Part shown: in pieces, positions 26,970 through 64,000 of the stretch
How positions within the stretch are numbered: position 1 is the stretch's first letter
How the letters are laid out: the number at the start of each line of letters is the position of its first letter
Source of the DNA: Octopus vulgaris
Taxonomy: Eukaryota
Reading direction: 5' to 3'
DNA: 64,000 bases
Assembly: GCA_951406725.2 (NCBI GenBank)
Contig: OX597828.1
Location: 64,666,001-64,730,000, forward strand
Notes under the pieces: model-generated
Told to the model about the DNA's origin: nothing
The model's database searches: none
Seen by the model: the letters and a program-made list of their open reading frames with translations, nothing else
Translations under genes and position numbers: made by a program

Positions 26970-29606
26970 TGTCTTGCAAACAACTTGCACATGCAAGTGC
27001 TACCAGTTAAAAGCTCCGTATATCGGAAGCTAGCAAGTGTATGGGGTCATCAGGAGAGAATGCGTGCCGTTTCGGGGCCTACCTCTCGACGGCATCAATG
27101 CGCACCGGCCCCCCTCACTGATATAAGGCCCCGCTTGCTAGATCAGCTGGTTATGAAGAACTGAATATACTTCTAGCCATCGCTCATCGTCTCTTTTTAA
27201 CCAAATCCAGTGGTTAGCCTTCTCCACTGTAGATTGGATATCAGTCATGGTGGTATTGACTTTACGATGAGTTAGGCCTAACGATAACAACAGTCGTCTC
27301 ACGCTGTGTCCTACAAACCCTCTACATCCGACTTCGATAGGAAAATGTTCCGCTTTCCAGCCTGCGCCTTCACATTCCTCGAGGAGGTTTTCATAACGGT
27401 TTAATTTTCGAGCTCGAGCGGCGTCCATATTATCTTCGTGAGAAACCGTTAGCTCGACTATATTTACAACTTTCTTTCGTTCACACCACATCAAAATATC
27501 TGGTTTTTTCGAAACTGGGATGGGAAAGAAAACTTGGCACCCAGGTAAATCTGTAGTTACCTCCCAATAGCCGTTCCACTTTTCATTTTTCTCAGGAAGT
27601 TTCTTGGTCTTCTTCTTGAAACGGATCTGCTGACCTGGTCGCACGAAGGTAATGAACTCTCTTGATGGTACTTTTAACGATTTTTCCTCAGTGTTGTTGA
27701 GATGAATTTGGTTCTTTATAGCATTGAAGATAACCTTAAGGACCAAGTTGTGCCTCCATGTGTACCTGTTCAATGCTAATGAACAGTTGGAAAGAATATG
27801 TTTTAGTGTACCGACTTTTCCACATTTGCAGATGTCATTCTCTAAGACGTTCCATCTTACTAGATTCGTAGGTGAAGGCAAAACATCATACGATGAACGA
27901 ATCAGGAAACTCAGCCGAGATGTCGTCCACTTCCACATCTCATCCCAACTTATCTTCCTCTCAACAACATGTTCTTCCCATCTCGTCATCTGACCTTGAT
28001 GAACACATCGGATCAAATGAAGCTCTCTTCTCTCTGCTTCTCTTGTTTTGACGCTGTTGCTAACAACAGATCTGCGTTCACACGGCTTCATGCTTGCAAA
28101 CGGTGTGAACTGATCTGCGCCAAAACCAAATCCTTTCCGATGGTTCTGCGTTGCTCCCACCATATCTCTGTGTATAAGAGAAGACAAGATGTTGTCAGTT
28201 TCTGCTTCTGCTTTCCACTTCCTGGCTGTTTTCACCTCTGGTGGGTTACGCCTGATTTCCATATCCTTCGATTCTCTCAGCATCATGACCGTCCGTATCT
28301 TCCCCAACTTATATATTTCGACTATTGATGCTATTGGTAACTGCAACGAACCTCTTTTACGATAAAGAGCTGAGCTGTTCAACATACGAGGTAGACCTAG
28401 CCACTTACTAATGAACACATTACATTTTTGTTCAATCTTTTCAACTCGTGACAATGCTACCTCGTATATTAAAAGTGGCCACGCAAGTCGCGGGTACAAG
28501 CCGAACTGCAAGCACCAAATTTTATATTTACCTGGTAACTTCGAAACATCAATCGCTGATAACCCAGCCTCGGCCTGTTTCATAATTTCAATCCCACGAC
28601 TTCTGTCTGACAATGTTCCAGCGTATACTCGTCCCAAGCTCTTGACGGACTCTTCCTTGACTGTTGGAATGCTTTCTTCAGATATTCGAAATTTAAATTC
28701 TTTCTGCACTCCCTTAACAAATGTCAGACTACGCGACTTTTTTGCTCTAAATCGCATCCTTGACCACCTTACAAGTTCGTCTAATCTCAAAAGGGCATTC
28801 TGCATGATTTGTTTATCTGTAGCTAGAAGTGTCACGTCATCCATGAAGGCTTTCTTAGGCGATTGTACATGGGCGATTTGTTCCGAAAAATCTAGACCTT
28901 TCAAAATCAACTCCATGACTAAGATAAACCACGTGACAGATATTGTACAGCCAGCAGCAATGCCAACCTCCAATCGGTGCCAATTTGTTGTAAAATTTCC
29001 AGTTGTAAACCTCATTTCGAAACTTTCATAGTACATCCTCATTATTTTGATCTCTTTGTCAGGAATGTGGAAGTGGTCCATGGCTGTTATGAGTAATTTG
29101 TGTGGCACTGAACCATACGCGTTAGCTAGGTCGAGCCATACCACGTTCAGATTTTTCTTGTTCTGTTTGGCATCCTGGATCGCTTTCCAAATCGAAAAAC
29201 AGTGTTCAACGCATCCAGGGATCCCGGGGATTCCGGCCTTTTGAACAGATTCATCAACATATCCGTTACTCTGTAAATATACCACTGTTCTCCTCGACAG
29301 AATTCCCATAAAGATCTTGCCTTCCACATTCAATAAGGATATCGGCCTAAACTGTTTTATGGTTTTTGCATTGGCCTCTTTCGGCAGGTATATACCTTCT
29401 GCCTTACACCAATCCTCTACTATAGTCTCCTCGCGCCACAGTTGTCGGATTAGGACGAAGAGCTTCTTTCGCAGACGATTGCAGTATTTGTAGACTTTAT
29501 ATGAGACGCCATCACTTCCTGGGGCACTCTTTGCTCTAGCTTTTCTTACGAAGTCATTCATCTCTCTCTCCCTGATGTCCCCAATCTGGAATTCGATATC
29601 AGGTCC
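26970..29606 (-). mobile_element. 5'-truncated RLE-type non-LTR retrotransposon (Hero-like, R2 group)
   Basis: Uninterrupted ORF plus a ~170-nt 3' UTR ending next to (TA)n; recognisable element sequence begins near PDIEF...KARAKSAPG. Confidence 0.9.
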
Positions 29607-29723
29607 TGAGAGATGATTTAGCTCATGTAAAGAGAGTTGGTATGTGAAAGCACGTGGTTGGATGTATAAAAGACAAAAAAGGGTTGTGTTAGAAAAATGT
29701 TGCGTAAAGCGAAGACATGACAT
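27138..29723 (-). CDS. Reverse transcriptase / CCHC finger / restriction-like endonuclease polyprotein (first ~40 aa probably read from flanking DNA)
   Basis: FRPISLLNVEGK, WLDLANAYGSVPH, GIAAGCTIS, AFMDD, CKCGKVGTLKHILSNC, WRHN, KPDI..VELTV..K..Y and PIEVGCRG; 861 codons with no stop. Confidence 0.92.
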   Translation of the reverse strand: MSCLRFTQHFSNTTLFCLLYIQPRAFTYQLSLHELNHLSGPDIEFQIGDIREREMNDFVRKARAKSAPGSDGVSYKVYKYCNRLRKKLFVLIRQLWREETIVEDWCKAEGIYLPKEANAKTIKQFRPISLLNVEGKIFMGILSRRTVVYLQSNGYVDESVQKAGIPGIPGCVEHCFSIWKAIQDAKQNKKNLNVVWLDLANAYGSVPHKLLITAMDHFHIPDKEIKIMRMYYESFEMRFTTGNFTTNWHRLEVGIAAGCTISVTWFILVMELILKGLDFSEQIAHVQSPKKAFMDDVTLLATDKQIMQNALLRLDELVRWSRMRFRAKKSRSLTFVKGVQKEFKFRISEESIPTVKEESVKSLGRVYAGTLSDRSRGIEIMKQAEAGLSAIDVSKLPGKYKIWCLQFGLYPRLAWPLLIYEVALSRVEKIEQKCNVFISKWLGLPRMLNSSALYRKRGSLQLPIASIVEIYKLGKIRTVMMLRESKDMEIRRNPPEVKTARKWKAEAETDNILSSLIHRDMVGATQNHRKGFGFGADQFTPFASMKPCERRSVVSNSVKTREAERRELHLIRCVHQGQMTRWEEHVVERKISWDEMWKWTTSRLSFLIRSSYDVLPSPTNLVRWNVLENDICKCGKVGTLKHILSNCSLALNRYTWRHNLVLKVIFNAIKNQIHLNNTEEKSLKVPSREFITFVRPGQQIRFKKKTKKLPEKNEKWNGYWEVTTDLPGCQVFFPIPVSKKPDILMWCERKKVVNIVELTVSHEDNMDAARARKLNRYENLLEECEGAGWKAEHFPIEVGCRGFVGHSVRRLLLSLGLTHRKVNTTMTDIQSTVEKANHWIWLKRDDERWLEVYSVLHNQLI

Positions 29724-29738
29724 GATATAAAAAAATTT

Positions 29739-29777
29739 GAGAAATTTGAAAAGAAAATACGAAACCGGTTATTTCTC
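29739..29777 (+). ncRNA. Minimal hammerhead-like motif, U3-A8 core, 1-bp stem II
   Basis: gagaaat-UUGAAAA-G aaaaua C-GAA-AC CG GU-U-atttctc; 7-bp stem I and palindromic stem III. Confidence 0.5.
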
Positions 29778-31528: not shown

Positions 31529-32100
31529 ATAACTATTGGTGCCTAGTTTTGGGAGGTTCTGTGGAATATATATTAACCTGTGTTCTTATGCTATAATAAA
31601 AACTATTTTGCAAGCACAAGTTTATCATTATTTAAATAGAATGACATTGAAGATGGCTTCGAAGGTACTGTCAGTTGACTCTGATGATGTTTTAGCCGGC
31701 GAAGATTTGAAATTCCCTGTCACAGTGTGTGCGTGTTTGTGTGTGTGTGTGTCTGTCTGTCTGTCTGTCTTTGTATATATATAAATTTCTATATAAATAA
31801 GGATAAGATTGTTATTTTAAATAGCGATCAAATCAAGTGGTAGTAATGGGAAGAAAGAAACGTAAAGGTTATAATAATTATCAAAATTATAAATAAGGGT
31901 TATCTAAGAGACACATGCTTGAAATAGCGGTCAAAACCTGACTGTAAAAACATATCGAATATTCAATAGAACACAAGGTGGAAAGACAAATAGACAAATA
32001 AAACCAGTAGAAACTGGATAATTTCAGACTCTGGGTTTCTGCCTCTATATAAAGCCATACTTTAAATATACTTTATATATCTTTATATATATATATATAT

Positions 32101-32936
32101 CATCACAATCAAGGAATGGCCATAACAGGCCATTCACCCACTAGAAATAACAGCCAAAGCTTCAACCGCAAAATAACATTAATTCCGCAAACCAGGAGAA
32201 AATTAAAAAAACATTTACCCTGTAATTTCTTATACGATGCACCGTTTCATCTATTGTTTAATGGTAAACTAACCTGATTAAATTAAATCAAGCCAATCTT
32301 CCATAGGCCGATAGATTCGTCAGTAAGAAACAGCCAGATCCGAGCAGATATTATCACGAGGCACCTCTATCCCTGCCTCGGCAATATCTGACCTAAAATT
32401 TTCAAATCATCGCAAATAAATTCTACGAAATTTGTTGCCACCCTATATTGATTAATTATGAATTTTCTGGTTAATTCCGTAATGGAATCGGCGGCTTATA
32501 TTTGCTGCCGATAAATTTGGCGCGAGTGCGATGATTTGAAAATTTTAGGTCAGATATTGCCGAGGCAGGGATAGAGGTGCCTCGTGATAATATCTGCTCG
32601 GATCTGGCTGTTTCTTACTGACGAATCTATCGGCCTATGGAAGATTGGCTTGATTTAATTTAATCAGGTTAGTTTACCATTAAACAATAGATGAAACGGT
32701 GCATCGTATAAGAAATTACAGGGTAAATGTTTTTTTAATTTTCTCCTGGTTTGCGGAATTAATGTTATTTTGCGGTTGAAGCTTTGGCTGTTATTTCTAG
32801 TGGGTGAATGGCCTGTTATGGCCATTCCTTGATTGTGATGTTGAACTTATAAATGGTCTATGACTATTTAATTTTTTCCCACTAGGCCGCTGGTGGCAAA
32901 TAAATTCTACGAAATTTTTTGCCACCCTATATTGAT

Positions 32937-32939
<3 letters not shown>
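32101..32939. mobile_element. Young fold-back hammerhead element: 314-bp inverted arms plus a 44-bp direct terminal repeat, in (TA)n
   Basis: 32101-32414 is the reverse complement of 32527-32840 (no mismatch seen); 32412-32455 equals 32896-32939 (1 mismatch). Confidence 0.92.
32611..32715 (+). ncRNA. Type I hammerhead ribozyme, canonical core, long stem II insert (mirror copy 32226-32330, -)
   Basis: tttctta-CUGACGA-AUCUAU...AUAGAU-GAA-ACGGU gc AUCGU-A-taagaaa; predicted cleavage after A32708. Confidence 0.88.
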
Positions 32940-33025
<86 letters not shown>

Positions 33026-47047: not shown

Positions 47048-47194
47048 TTGATTTCAAATTTTGGCACACGGCCAGCAATTTTGGGGAAGGGGATAAGTCG
47101 ATTGAATCGTCCATGTTTTCTCAGCTGGTACTTATTTTTTTGACCGCAAAAGGATGAAAGTCAAAGCCATCTTGATGGAATTTGAACTCAGAAC
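47048..47194 (-). mobile_element. Diverged SINE family B-related fragment
   Basis: ggtacttatttttttgaccgcaaaaggatgaaagtcaaag...ggaatttgaactcagaac. Confidence 0.65.
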
Positions 47195-47205
47195 TTGTAT
47201 CAATG

Positions 47206-47772
<567 letters not shown>

Positions 47773-47773
<1 letters not shown>

Positions 47774-49130
47774 TTCTTTATTGGCCACACAGGGCTGCAC
47801 ACAGATGGGACAAGTTACAAGGTAGAGCTTTTCTTTTGGGGGATGAAGAGAACAAAAAACAAAAGAAAAAAAGGGGTGGCGTAGGTTTTCGATCAAGAGG
47901 GATCGTAGAAGGGAAGAAAAGAACAAAAACAAAAAAACAAAAAATTGAATAAAATAAAAGGAATAAAAAGAAAAAAAAGGAAAGGAAAAGGAACAAAGGA
48001 AAGAGAAATGAAAAAAGAAGAAAAAAGGGGGGAAAAAAGGGGAAGAGGAAAAAAAGAACGATCAATAGGGATCGTGTATCACAGTGTTATGATATATGGT
48101 GTAAAGGGGAAAGCAAGTAAGGTTTATCCGTGGGAAGAAAAGCCTACGAAAAAGACCACGGTAACCTTGGTCAATATTGTTATATGTTACCACATTTGTT
48201 TGCAAGTGGGTAACCCTCTGTTTTCAATTTCTGGGTTCATAGGATTATGCTCAAGGTGGCTTCGTCATTCATACGTGCCATCCTTGCTACATTCACCCAT
48301 CTTTTTTAAAACATTCGCTAGACAAAACTTGCCTCTCTACTCTCACTTTCCTTTTCAAGTGGTACTTGAAGAAGTTGATGAGAGATTGACCAGAGAGGAA
48401 AGTGTTTGTCTCCAATCCTTTCAGACGCGTCCACCAGATACATTCTTTCGCCATAGCCACAAGGATGATGAAAATAGCTCTTCCTTCCCGTTTGAAGGAA
48501 GGAGGCGTGACAATATTGACGATAGACTCAGCTGATAAACCGACTCGTCCCACACGTGACAGCAGTTGTTCGACATAAGCCCACAGGTCGGAAATTGTTG
48601 GACACTGCACGAGTGCGTGCAGAACGGTTTCGTCGCTCTGACCGCATCTCGGGCAGGTCGGCCCCGTGTTTCTCGAGCCGTGTCTGTAGAGCTTATCCCG
48701 AACGGGTAGCGCTTCTCGGTAGCACTGCCAGGCCAGGGATCTCTGGAAGTTGTCCATGGGCCCTGGCCCGAAAGTCGTCCTGAACAGGCGGGTCAGGTAC
48801 TCCTCGTCGACGTCCAGGTTCGCCCTGAGCTCGTCGTCGTACCTCCCCTCCACTAATCCCCTATAGAATGCTTTGGTTGTGTTGAAGTCACTCAAGGTCG
48901 ACCCGGGACGGCAGAGTTGCTTGAGAGCAACGCGACACTCGCGGTGCCATTCGCCCTTCCTCGGCCTCTTTTTGATCCACGACTGCAGTTCGGTCATGGA
49001 GACGAGCTGCGGGAAAGCGTGCCTCACAAACGGCGACCACACCTGTTCACCGTCGTCTACATAGAGCCAGAGATGTCGCAGTCTCAGCGCGTGTCTGCGC
49101 ATCATCAACCACGGCATGCCCAGCCCTCCT
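47773..49130 (-). mobile_element. 5'-truncated Tx1/L1-like LINE (ORF2 C-terminus with zf-RVT) embedded in (GATA)n
   Basis: GGLGMPW...ALPVRDKL...CPRCGQSDETVLHALVQC...IWWTR (ORF 48293-49117); pyrimidine-rich 3' UTR, AATAAA, then (TCTA)n. Confidence 0.9.
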
Positions 49131-56326: not shown

Positions 56327-56522
56327 TGTATGTACGTATGCAAGTGGATTGCATGTAAACGTGCATATGTGGGCCACATGATTTTTGTTTTATCTTTATT
56401 CTACTTTGTGCTAGTCATCACAGTTGTGATAATGCTAGAACGCGTTTGTATATGCATAAATAATTCTTCAGTCAAATTACCATGCTTTGACATGGTAATT
56501 TGGCTTTGACATGGTAATTTGG

Positions 56523-56575
56523 CTTCTTCTTCTTCTTCTTCTTCTTCTTCTTCTTCTTCTTCCTCCTCCTCTTCC

Positions 56576-56610
<35 letters not shown>

Positions 56611-57217
56611 CTCCTCTTCTTCTTCTTCTTCTTCTTCTCCCTCTCTTTCTCCTTCTTCTTCTTCTTCTTCTTCTTCTTCTTCTTCTTCTTCTTCTTCTTC
56701 TTCGTCTTCTTCTTCTTCTTCTTCTTCTTCCTCCTCCTCCTCTTCTTCTTCCTCCTCTTCTTCTTCTTCGTCTTCTTCTTCTTCTTCTTCCTCCTCTTCT
56801 TCTTCTTCTTCGTCTTCTTCTTCTTCGTCTTCTTCTTCTTCTTCTTCCTCCTCCTCTTCTTCTTCTTCTTCTTCTCCTTCGTCTTCTTCTTCTTCTTCTT
56901 CTTCTTCTTCTTCGTCTTCTTCTTCTTCTTCTTCTTCGTCTTCTTCTTCTTCTTCTTCTTCTTCTCCCTCCTCCTCCTCTTCTTCTTCTTCTTCTTCTAC
57001 TTCCTCCTCCTCCTCCTCTTCTTCTTCTTCTTCTTCTTCTCCTCCTCCCTTCTTCTTCTTCTTCTTCTTCTTCTTCTTCTTCTTCTTCTTCTTCCTCCTC
57101 CTCCTCTTCTTCTTCTCGTCTTCTTTTTCTTCCTCTTCTTCTTCTTCCCTCTCCTCCTCCTCCTCCTCTTCTTCTTCTTCTTCTTCTTCCTTCCTCCTCC
57201 TCCTCTCTTCTTCTTCT
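56523..57217. repeat. ~695-bp (CTT/CCT)n polypyrimidine tract
   Basis: Read directly; it explains the poly-R, poly-L and poly-S ORFs. Confidence 0.98.
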
Positions 57218-57492
57218 ATTTGTTTCCTCCGCCTGAATCGGTCTTGTTACTACCATCTTTTCTTTTTCAACGGAGTTCTCTACACACAACATTAAATTAC
57301 TTACATGCAAGCACGCAAACGCACGCACGCGCAAATACATATACTGACTCACACACACATACTCGTATATATATATATGGGGAAAAAATCATAGGTAGAA
57401 AATGCTAAAAATAATTTAGCATTTTATAGAAAATACTAAAATAATTTTATAAAAATAAAATTTTTCCAAAATTTAATTGTTTTCCATACTTA

Positions 57493-60632: not shown

Positions 60633-60693
<61 letters not shown>

Positions 60694-61355
60694 TTATATT
60701 TCGGAATGGTCATATTGCCAGTTTAGCCAATAAAAACACACGCACTATATATTTGGTGTTATTTTGCTTCAGTGATATTTATTTTCTACATTAATCTTAA
60801 TCTTATTTCGGCCAAAGTTCTTTCGTCACACTCCTGTGACCGCATCAGTGGTCCTTTGTTTTCTTCTCACTTACTTGTGTCTCCCCTTACTAACCGTCAG
60901 CCATTTTGTATTTCTATTGTATGTCTTCATTTGCGCATGCTTATATCTCTATGTGCGTCTATGTTTATTTAGTGTGTGTGTGAGGGGGATGCCTGTAATA
61001 TTTGTATATTCTGGTTATATACATTCTTGTAATTTGTATTTTGTTTTTGTTGTTGTTGCTTTTGTTCTAATTTTGTTCATGTGTTTACATCCACCCATTA
61101 TTATCATTACATATGCTTGTATGTATGTATAACAACAATATTAGTAATAATAATAATAAATCTAATTGAAAAAAAAAAAGAAAAAAAAAAATATATATAT
61201 ATATATACATACATATATATATATATATACATATATATATACATACACATATACACACACACACACATATACATACACACACACATATATATAGTTATTC
61301 ATTTCTATTTCTTTAATTATCTGTGTATTTATTATGTTTGCAGGATCCACTATCG

Positions 61356-61967
61356 TCATATGTTGTGGTGTGCGCTATTGCTCCATTCTAGTTTTCTATT
61401 CAGGCTAGGTTTATTTTCTATTATATGTGTAGCTTCTGTAATTTGTCTAATTGTTGCATCTGTTCTATGTGTGGACAATATCTTAATCTCTATGTTATTG
61501 ATTGATCCCCCGTGTTCTTGTTCAGCGTGTTGGTACAGAATCGATGAGCTTTTACCTTCCTTGAGTTGTCTCCAATGTTCATTCACCCGCTCACCAATGC
61601 TTCTTGCTGTTTCCCCTACGTATGTTACTGTCTTGTTACTGCATCGTCCCTCTATACATCTTATACTATAGACCACATTTCTGGCTTTACAGTTTGTTTG
61701 TGGGCTAAATCTACATACAGTGCAATAGTTATCCGTACAGAGAGTTCTACTAAAAGGATAGCTTCTACCAATTATAGATCTGATAGGGTTGCCTGGCTTT
61801 TCAACAACCTTAATTCTTAGTTTAAGTTTATCTAGGGTCCTTCTAAAGCGGTACGCCAGTTCACCTCCAGGGGTGGTGTCAACGAACATGACACTCTGGT
61901 ATTTATGGCTATCATACCAAGAGTTGGCCTTCCCTATTTTCTTTTTGTCCTTTCTATAGTGTTCCAT
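61356..61967 (-). CDS. PLE Cys-rich linker and GIY-YIG endonuclease (frameshifted from the RT)
   Basis: CTDNYCTVC...NCKARNVVYSIRC...TYVGETARSIGERVNEH...HAEQEH...RQITEA...LNRKLEW. Confidence 0.92.
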   Translation of the reverse strand: MEHYRKDKKKIGKANSWYDSHKYQSVMFVDTTPGGELAYRFRRTLDKLKLRIKVVEKPGNPIRSIIGRSYPFSRTLCTDNYCTVCRFSPQTNCKARNVVYSIRCIEGRCSNKTVTYVGETARSIGERVNEHWRQLKEGKSSSILYQHAEQEHGGSINNIEIKILSTHRTDATIRQITEATHIIENKPSLNRKLEWSNSAHHNI

Positions 61968-62643
61968 GACTTGTTCCTATAGAGTGGGCAAATCCCATTC
62001 CTATCATTACATAATATATTATCAAATTTCTTCATGGCTCCTTTGTATACTCTGACCCTTTCTTTATGGCTGTAACCTGAGAACTGCATGCGGTGAATGA
62101 AATACTGTATGTGTCTCTTTAATTCTGTAGGCTCGCACATGCGTGACACATTTCTCATTATTCTGACGAGGTCTGCCATCAAAATATTGAATTTGGCATT
62201 GCCCGCAATGGCTGAGTTCCGGTGGATCAGGTATTTTGAGGCCATAGGTTTTGCATAGTATGAATGAAGGATTTGGGTTTTATTTTTCACAATTTCTAGC
62301 CAGAGTTCAGTGTCTAGTACTGGTAGTCTATGGTTGGGGTGTTTAGTGGGGTAGTCTATTGTGACCTTAATACTCTGGTGGATGGAGTTAGCTATTTGCT
62401 GGATGCTCTCCATAGTATTAGTTTCTATTACTATATCAACATTACTCTCTTGTGGGGGTGCCTTTACTACTATATTGATATCATCAACATAGCGAGAGTA
62501 CATGTTTACGAGTATGGATTTCTGCAGTAGGCATTCTTTAAGCCTTCTGTCCCACCATACCATGAAGAGGTTGGCCACATCACCAGCGATACTAACACCG
62601 ATGGCTGCCCCCTCGTCCTGGGCATATATTTTATTATTAAATT
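61934..62643 (-). CDS. PLE reverse transcriptase, C-terminal half (upstream part of the listed ORF is read from the inverted pLTR)
   Basis: FKFNNKIYAQDEGAAIG...ANLFM...RYVDDI...LPVLD...YYAKPM...SGYS. Confidence 0.92.
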
Positions 62644-62760
62644 TAAATAAACATAGACGCACATAGAGATATAAGCATGCGCAAATGAAGACATACAATA
62701 GAAATACAAAATGGCTGACGGTTAGTAAGGAGAGACACAAGTAAGTGAGAAGAAAACAAA

Positions 62761-62805
62761 GGACCACTGATGCGGTCACAGGAGTGTGACGAAAGAACTT
62801 TGGCC
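62761..62805 (+). ncRNA. pLTR hammerhead-like motif with variant core CUGAUGC (mirror copy 60810-60854, -)
   Basis: cca-CUGAUGC-g-GUCACA ggag UGUGAC-GAA-AG aa CU-U-tgg. Confidence 0.6.
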
Positions 62806-62980
62806 GAAATAAGATTAAGATTAATGTAAAAAATAAATATCACTGAAGCAAAATAACACCAAATATATAGTGCGTGTGTTTTTATTGGCTAAACTGGCAA
62901 TATGACCATTCCGAAATATAACAATATCTGTTTCAACACACGACTTCACATAAAAAATCTTGCACAACAAATATTTAAAC

Positions 62981-63025
<45 letters not shown>

Positions 63026-64000
63026 AAAATTACGGTGTATAACGAACGCTAGTAACTTTAAAACACCGTTAAGAAATTTGACGTCATACTACGAGAGAAG
63101 AAGAAAAAGGGAGAGAGAAAGATAATCAAAGGAGTAATGGAGGTATAAACAAATAGAAGTAAATGGCAGATAGATAGAAAAGATGAAAGAAAGAATAGGA
63201 TATATGAGATGAAAAATTAAAGTTTAAGTTGCAGATATTATTAAGTAAGGGAGCAGATATTATTTGAAATAGCTGAGAGAGTGTTTTTTCAATGTGAATA
63301 CTTGTAAACATGTTCTTTACTGGTGTTGACCAATGTGTGTTAGGAAAAATGGGTAAATATTTGTTCGTCCTTACAAAGAGAGCAGAAAGTTTTCTTTATA
63401 TCATAGGGAAACGATCTAGACAACATTTTCCTATCCAAAAAAAATTGTTTATAACAGTCTTTGAGATGCCAAATTATTTTACTAAGGACTGTAGTATTAC
63501 GTTTATTAATATATTTAAACGTAGAAAGGTGGTTTTTTTTTAATTCCGTGGATGAAACCCAATATAAATATATTACTTAGATCCTGCAGAAATTTTCCGT
63601 TGATAAACAACGCTTTTAATTCTGCAATTTCCCTTGAGAACATTAGTTTTATTCGGACCACAATTAAGAGGACTATTACTATTGGTACTATTATTTAAGG
63701 AGACATTATCATTATTATTTTTGTTGTTATTACAATTATTAAGCGAAACCCTTTTAGCGTTCAGAACATATGTGTTATGCGAGGAAATAATTTGTAGGAG
63801 GTTATTGGTGTTGGAGAAAAGAATTTGGATGCGATGTGCGTTGAGAACGGAGTGGTACCGGGAATTTTGGGGAAAGTTCCTTTGGACTGTTTGACGAAAT
63901 TGGTAAGGAAGGTTACTTTTAAATTGTTTTCCGTCTGGAATAGTAAACTAAATAGTTTTACTTGGTTCATGCGATTTATAGGGAGATTTCACATTAAAAA

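Follow-up and report, generated by a model that had tools for sequence, protein, structure and literature searches.

A hammerhead retrozyme of Octopus vulgaris occurs in TA microsatellites as paired arms with two fixed ends

What process leaves a non-coding 484-nt unit beside an inverted copy of itself within a run of TA repeats? The locus that raises this question lies in a 64,000-nt stretch of the Octopus vulgaris genome (contig OX597828.1), here called the window, and all plain positions below are those of the window. A first-pass annotation had described the unit as preceded by a copy of its last 44 nt and then by a perfect 314-bp inverted copy with GCA microhomology at the junction. The inverted copy was borne out, as the maximal perfect arms are 32101-32414 and 32527-32840 (314 bp, 0 mismatches), and the GCA was indeed found to belong to both arms. 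The direct copy is present (32412-32455 against 32896-32939) but imperfect, at 43 of 44 nt. What the annotation overlooked is the outer end of the inverted arm, which is a second fixed start site, here called B (Table 1). The unit has a GC content of 37.6%, its longest ATG-initiated reading frames are 18 aa (sense) and 53 aa (antisense), and its listed open reading frames include none for RT plus GIY-YIG. We conclude that the element is a non-coding retrozyme that behaves like a substrate of a Penelope-like element (PLE) and is not an autonomous PLE.

Table 1. Features of the insertion in the window. U is the position within the unit 32456-32939.
Feature	Position	Strand	Details
Left (TA)n target remnant	32084..32100		From sequence; TA-run rule of the family
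B arm (U72-385)	32101..32414	-	Fixed site B (32101) abuts the TA run
Hammerhead copy in B arm	32226..32330	-	Core start 32323; predicted cut 32233/32232; mirrors the plus copy
Head-to-head junction	32412..32414		Microhomology of 3 nt (GCA), which would make the cDNA 3' ends of the two arms complementary
Partial unit of variable length at the 5' end of the A arm (U441-484), a pseudo-LTR	32412..32455	+	43/44 against the unit end
Full 484-nt unit	32456..32939	+	A arm terminates at fixed site A (32939)
Type I hammerhead	32611..32715	+	Stem I 32611-17/32709-15; CUGACGA 32618; stem II 32625-32692; GAAA 32693; stem III short and near-palindromic; predicted GUA cut 32708/32709
56-nt stem II insert	32631..32686	+	AU-rich unbranched hairpin; similar hairpin kept in sister families
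B module	32807..32840	+	Hairpin, then CCT-n-ATT motif, then site B (U384/385)
A module	32892..32939	+	Hairpin, then CCT-n-ATT motif, then site A (U484, often +TTAT)
Right (TA)n target remnant, then (GT)n	32940..32979		From sequence

The unit belongs to a large family. An exact-pattern search of the 2.8-Gb genome returned 2,028 exact unit-to-unit junctions for units of 484 to 493 nt, and the search with the unit itself gave 152 matches from the 40 candidates scored among 1,713. Arrays run head to tail with up to 9 full units in one arm, and identity is 88 to 100% for subfamilies and 72 to 76% for sister families. At least two sister retrozyme families were seen, one with a unit of about 474 nt (L141, L177, L231-L233, L246-L248, L251, and L279); the long AU-rich stem II hairpin is preserved in these families, and so are homologous A and B ends in the ones read over their full length. 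Each unit carries a type I hammerhead, and the units are tandem, non-coding, and below the 45 to 50% GC mark of non-LTR retrozymes. The insertions combine a partial tandem copy, an inverted 5'-truncated copy, two 3' ends, and a (TA)n target, the makeup of PLE-type insertions. Contigs from four public runs, presumed to be RNA, cover most of the unit and are uninformative as to strand, ends, and circles; near-identical contigs from one presumed RNA run (X10) extend across the unit junction and the cut site.

Metazoan non-LTR retrozymes, in the available portions of PMC7229834 and bioRxiv 10.64898/2026.07.22.740005, likewise have tandem non-coding units with a type I hammerhead and low GC, lack LTR, PBS, and PPT, and are proposed to be mobilised by PLEs. 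The preprint ties retrozymes to PLEs, calls their mobilisation unresolved, and gives a range of 51 to 972 bp into which the present unit size falls. The octopus family differs from the retrozymes described there in its dispersed two-armed (TA)n insertions with two fixed ends and its 68-nt stem II, and no sequence link to a PLE pLTR was found in the 60 PLE-type loci compared. A text search of PMC7229834 found the word "inverted" 0 times. On its sequence characters we place the element among the non-LTR retrozymes of animals, as a member with a high copy number and a type I hammerhead.

The hammerhead had been called canonical, and the core and the covariation of its helices agree. In unit numbering the core consists of CUGACGA at U163, GAAA at U238, and GUA with a cut predicted after U253. 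Across 15 family and sister-family sequences, helices I to III were paired in 94.7% of 227 cells, a figure that comes from related sequences and is not a probability. Two-sided changes were found in 10 of 16 hammerhead pairs, and slid controls were only 37 to 45% paired. The core is conserved per unit, with N7 and H17 varying as allowed. A degenerate hammerhead pattern matched 3,192 times in the genome (family and sister families) and its reversed control 0 times, and we conclude that the pattern is not due to chance. Rfam returned no hammerhead match at the gathering score or at E values up to 10, probably because of the long stem II. The insert in stem II had been described as branched, but it folded as a long unbranched hairpin with internal loops in 14 of 15 rows; in the remaining row (L053) the excised piece overran into helix III. 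Likewise, a hammerhead is encoded on both strands solely through the inverted copy, as the minus strand of the unit itself lacks CUGANGA. The predicted ensemble gave pair probabilities of about 0.1 for helix I and about 0.01 for helix III. The motif has the form of a hammerhead RNA and is likely to cut itself.

Ribozyme-sense copies end at either A (U484, often followed by TTAT) or B (U381-389), always next to TA, and a TA run of at least 6 nt was present within 8 nt of all 248 family 3' ends. Site A joined to TA gave 676 exact matches and site B joined to TA gave 36, with a pattern that fits the youngest subfamily only; reversed controls gave 0. A hairpin and a CCT-n-ATT motif precede each site, the motif is letter-identical at A and B in two sister families, and the stretch from B to A forms a "tail" of about 100 nt. 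The first 100 A-ended insertions comprised 70 simple A/B cases, 2 complex A/B cases, 9 that paired A with another end, 18 with a single arm, 1 next to an older copy on the same strand, and no inverted A/A case, such that an inverted arm was present in 81 insertions and a second A in none of them. The 35 B-ended insertions comprised 24 A/B, 8 single, 2 B/other, and 1 complex B/B (a second B in 1 of 27 inversions). In 20 further regions, 11 of 13 inverted insertions were A/B and 0 were A/A or B/B. The window copy is an ordinary A/B case, with B arm U72-385 and an A arm made of U441-484 and a full unit.

The inner, 5' breakpoints varied freely except for one cluster. Permutation length, which the first-pass annotation had thought worth comparing between copies, did differ, as the 5' partial unit of the A arm ranged from 11 to 472 nt among 35 long A arms. 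The sole B/B case is the second of two adjacent insertions (L199; G000:C10:9034700-9038200) that share the same U114/U432 junction in opposite orientation, and the pair may have arisen when a transcript that spanned the junction was copied again locally. Two insertions (L057 and L199) show a minor third end at U291/292. De novo synthesis of the TA run was considered and rejected: empty-like sites in a host repeat already carry TA runs (L148, L187, and L197), and thus pre-existing targets suffice.

A coding PLE with RT and GIY-YIG domains lies in the same window at 60688-62985, 5' truncated and with head-to-head arms in (TA)n, and its copies served as a control. This element has two fixed ends 56 to 58 nt apart, and the long end was paired with the short end in 13 of 13 inversions in which both ends were visible, by a hand count in which one short end lay at 280 rather than 287 and one long end was cut by the locus edge. 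It is abundant and young: among 9,673 candidates, 150 of the 150 scored were identical over 134 aa, and frames reach 1,312 aa. Its terminal repeat holds a candidate hammerhead-like CUGAUGC...GAAA at about 60820-60850 on the minus strand. A search for a partner enzyme covered 60 PLE-type loci, a small fraction of those in the genome, and found no homology between their coding elements and the unit or two sister units; the window PLE and 30 of its copies had nothing in common with the unit. The one match among 30 GIY-YIG loci in 8 clusters (L283) proved not to be a chimera: it is a short B arm lying within the TA run where an old element ends. Another young GIY-YIG family, at L287, L292, and loci related to them, has many open frames of 781 aa; in its copy at L289 the 3' region carries short tandem repeats, and no hammerhead belonging to that copy was detected. 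L289:100-570 holds a further hammerhead repeat, unrelated and arranged head to head, whose stem II is also long and AU-rich; it occupies the TA run that follows a GIY-YIG element.

We consider it probable that a borrowed Penelope-like RT/GIY-YIG enzyme pastes the retrozyme into TA microsatellites by twin TPRT on one RNA. The tandem multi-copy unit, the TA targets, the paired fixed 3' ends, the haplotype common to both arms, and the junctions with microhomology or inserts are observed directly. Both target strands would be cut, and one cDNA would be primed from each cut DNA end, both on the same RNA. One RT would start at B and the second at A, which lies 100 nt further downstream, and each site would be set by its hairpin and CCT-n-ATT module. 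The enzyme from A would trail the enzyme from B and displace its cDNA. Both would either halt at the 5' end of the RNA or detach from it, and end-joining would unite the 3' ends of the two cDNAs, at GCA in the window copy. Some templates would be ribozyme-cut linear RNAs, and the remainder, including that of the window copy, would be uncut multimers or circles.

Comparison of the arms supports a common template. In 62 of 63 insertions the two arms diverged by no more than 1.5%, a level reached by 12% of 5,735 cross-insertion pairs, and 23 insertion-private variants were fixed in all copies of their own insertion, 16 of them in both arms. In 81 of 92 inverted insertions the arms shared an overlap of 30 nt or more, indicating that the same stretch was read twice, and arm lengths were correlated (rho 0.47, or 0.45 without the class of insertions that stop at the cut site). 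An initial comparison of arm identity with the nearest neighbour gave a null result (24 lower, 25 higher, 16 equal; P 0.69), was flawed by partial coverage, and was replaced. Against a single template, 99 of 219 within-insertion differences carry alleles known from other insertions, many of which may be explained by recurrent mutation among the 144 insertions, and arm-specific fixed variants occur in L262 and L165. The shared alleles and arm-specific variants fit two RNAs or later conversion. In twin priming of L1, the other end of the cut target also primes on the RNA and produces a 5' inversion with microhomology; L1 arms are not known to overlap, and the position of the second site varies. 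In the retrozyme, by contrast, the second site is fixed and most arms overlap (81 of 92).

The one cluster of 5' breakpoints lies at the ribozyme. The first-pass stop rate of the arms in U252-279 was 4.35-fold that of the rest (34 stops, P 7e-10) and in U224-251 was 0.71-fold. A-arm stops in the cluster coincided with a B-arm stop in 13 of 16 cases (P 1e-10), and the A arm was the shorter in 12 of the 13. Thus, in 13 insertions both arms stop just 3' of the predicted ribozyme cut site, and the simplest reading of the coupled stop is that two tandem enzymes ran off a ribozyme-cut 5' end. The cluster coincides in part with the 3' strand of stem I and with a T-rich quasi-palindrome, and therefore a paused RT or readily formed microhomology could give the appearance of a cut end; several junctions of this class carry inserts of T/A runs. 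Over all junctions, 47 of 104 could be parsed exactly, and 24 of the 47 carry inserts. Microhomology of at least 2 nt was found in 11 of 23 direct joins, as against 17% expected by chance, and many inserts in the junction listing copy nearby bases, a pattern which we take to resemble polymerase theta-type end-joining. A search of the main texts of the open literature found neither the A/B pairing rule nor the coupled cut-site stop.

The first-pass annotation had attributed the inverted arm to either a second priming or a template switch. The second priming is supported. A simple switch, or fold-back, is at odds with the arm ends: in 49 of 92 inverted insertions the B arm runs past the 5' end of the A arm by more than 20 nt, and in 23 the A arm runs past the B arm, such that neither arm is regularly a sub-copy of the other. 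Antisense self-priming has been suggested for PLE inversions in the available text of PMC3846280, and in the corresponding scheme for the retrozyme a single priming would be followed by fold-back of the cDNA, with an endonuclease resolving the product at A or B. Such a scheme would account for the 24 of 92 junctions at which both arms start within 20 nt of each other, several of them in local palindromes, compared with 9.5 in shuffles. Besides the overshoot, however, the cut-site class runs in the wrong direction for fold-back from A, as the B arm reaches further in 12 of 13 cases, and we regard fold-back as unlikely. Nor is it at all likely that two separate RNAs from one donor locus, one per enzyme subunit, yielded the two arms. 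Overlapping arms would then not require strand displacement, and the arm-specific variants of L262 and L165 would be accommodated, but coupled stops, correlated lengths, and strict pairing of A with B are unexpected for independent molecules.

Twin priming on one RNA can be cast as a more specific rule, which we put forward tentatively and at slightly less than an even chance. A dimeric RT/endonuclease acting on the duplicated modules of one RNA would always prime one end at B and the other at A, and the tandem enzymes would run off cut RNAs within about 25 nt of the cut or circle uncut circles. If so, one rule would explain both the tails and the head-to-head inversions of PLEs, and the insertions would constitute in vivo evidence for hammerhead cutting and for the insertion of cut RNAs.

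The layout had also been taken as the signature of a circular or multimeric template, with RT running past the unit junction. That the template was longer than one ribozyme-cut monomer stands: an arm crosses the cut site in 69 of 92 inverted insertions and exceeds one unit in 43 of 92, and thus a cut linear monomer was not the template of these arms. The "unit junction," however, is the fixed start site A rather than the ligation point U253/254. As a signature of a circle the layout fails, because the coding PLE shows the same layout and obeys the same end rule, the layout has been published for PLEs, and the arrays share variants in higher-order and patchy fashion. A circle may nonetheless have been the template of most long arms, a proposal that falls a little short of even odds. 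Circles as templates for more than one unit were already proposed in the Discussion of PMC4209133, as far as its available text goes, and RNA circles have been demonstrated for coral, mussel, and axolotl retrozymes (available text of PMC7229834).

That one monomeric 484-nt circle, read by rolling circle, explains all arms longer than a unit is possible but doubtful. Several arrays are almost uniform over both arms (L192, L174, and L169), as a circle would predict; L192 has 0 substitutions in 9 segments over both arms, with the nearest other insertion at 0.4%, and the 8 units of L180 have 1 difference. Within-insertion divergence was below that to the nearest other insertion in 41 of 63 cases (P 6e-4). 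Higher-order periods of 4, 3, and 2 (L036, L046, and L125), a triplicated unit (L147), and 24 variants found in subsets of units, 8 of them across arms, as against 143 singletons, all speak against a single circle, as does the shared layout of the coding PLE. Stops at the cut site on later passes were not in excess in a pattern-selected sample (ratio 0.78) but were enriched 5.7-fold among 26 best-hit insertions (7 stops), and because the result depends on the sample it does not decide between circle and multimer. The alternative that the templates are linear read-through multimers of genomic arrays, partly cut by the ribozyme, with arrays regrown by DNA-level tandem duplication, is a serious one, even if we would not bet on it. 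Periodic and patchy variants across arrays and the later-pass stops in long arrays would follow from it, many sites may remain uncut given the rarity of helices I and III in the predicted ensemble, and unprocessed RNA was the main substrate in the portion of PMC11167929 at hand. Conversely, private variants fixed in 4 to 9 copies, several in both arms, would demand very homogeneous donors, and heavy 5' truncation would shrink the arrays every generation.

Identity of the arms had been read as a sign of very recent insertion. Median arm divergence was 0.2 to 0.3% in all subfamilies, and hence identical arms are expected about 40 to 50% of the time (the chance of 0 differences in 304 positions at the family median is 0.39 to 0.53); arms were in fact identical in 18 of 65 insertions. 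Identity therefore says little about the window copy in a family that is young as a whole. It is very improbable that the hairpin is an artefact of assembly or of long-read fold-back. Among the contigs listed, none spans the junction of the window copy itself or its TA-flanked ends, as an artefact would allow, but the flanking sequences to the left and right are unlike each other, each end falls on a site at TA that is fixed in the family, the arms are asymmetric, and 104 such junctions, mutually different, were mapped elsewhere. Moreover, contigs of the independent public run X1 contain head-to-head joints of left to right arm from other copies, in 14 of the 15 listed out of a set with 150 more.

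Comparison with EN+ PLEs indicates what is new in the family. The available text of PMC8557442 describes a full copy that follows a partial one, next to an inverted copy truncated at its 5' end, with a tail that is often confined to one end and with (TA)n as the target; that of PMC3846280 describes the same layout. The retrozyme is alike in its partial and full copies, head-to-head inverted copy, one-end tail, and (TA)n preference. It differs from these elements in having no ORF and a tail of about 100 nt rather than 30 to 40 nt, and its strict pairing of one A with one B is counted, whereas the two papers, in the same portions, say "often" or "optionally" at one end. The origin of the tandem and inverted structures and tails of PLEs is called undefined in PMC8557442. 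Purified Anolis Poseidon PAc, modelled as a dimer, cuts and extends both strands, and two internal RNA start sites define its tail (PMC11167929, available portion). In vitro, the RT start site was the same for both strands and ribozyme cutting was not needed. An AT-rich target and two start sites with a tail are common to Poseidon and the retrozyme. In the same portion of that paper, by contrast, no reads end at the ribozyme site and start-site choice is independent of strand, whereas here arms pile up just 3' of the cut site and genomic ends pair A with B. The class of element and its layout are thus already known, and the part worth testing is the family-level rule of A with B, one RNA, and a coupled stop at the cut site. 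The family offers a countable footprint that bears on the origin of PLE structures and on retrozyme mobilisation, and its 484-nt RNA, on which two start modules have been mapped, would make a compact substrate for work on twin priming, on the role of ribozyme cutting, and on the choice between circle and multimer.

The window also contains other repeats. A stop-free frame of 876 aa at 27138-29768 on the minus strand matches Pfam RVT_1 (E 8e-19) and belongs to a non-LTR retrotransposon. An asparagine-rich fragment at 63573-63947, also on the minus strand, gave the impression of resembling a PLE C-terminal region and had no relevant Pfam hit. Long simple repeats of the GAA/GAG type and of (TATC)n occupy 56400-57400 and 47120-47800.
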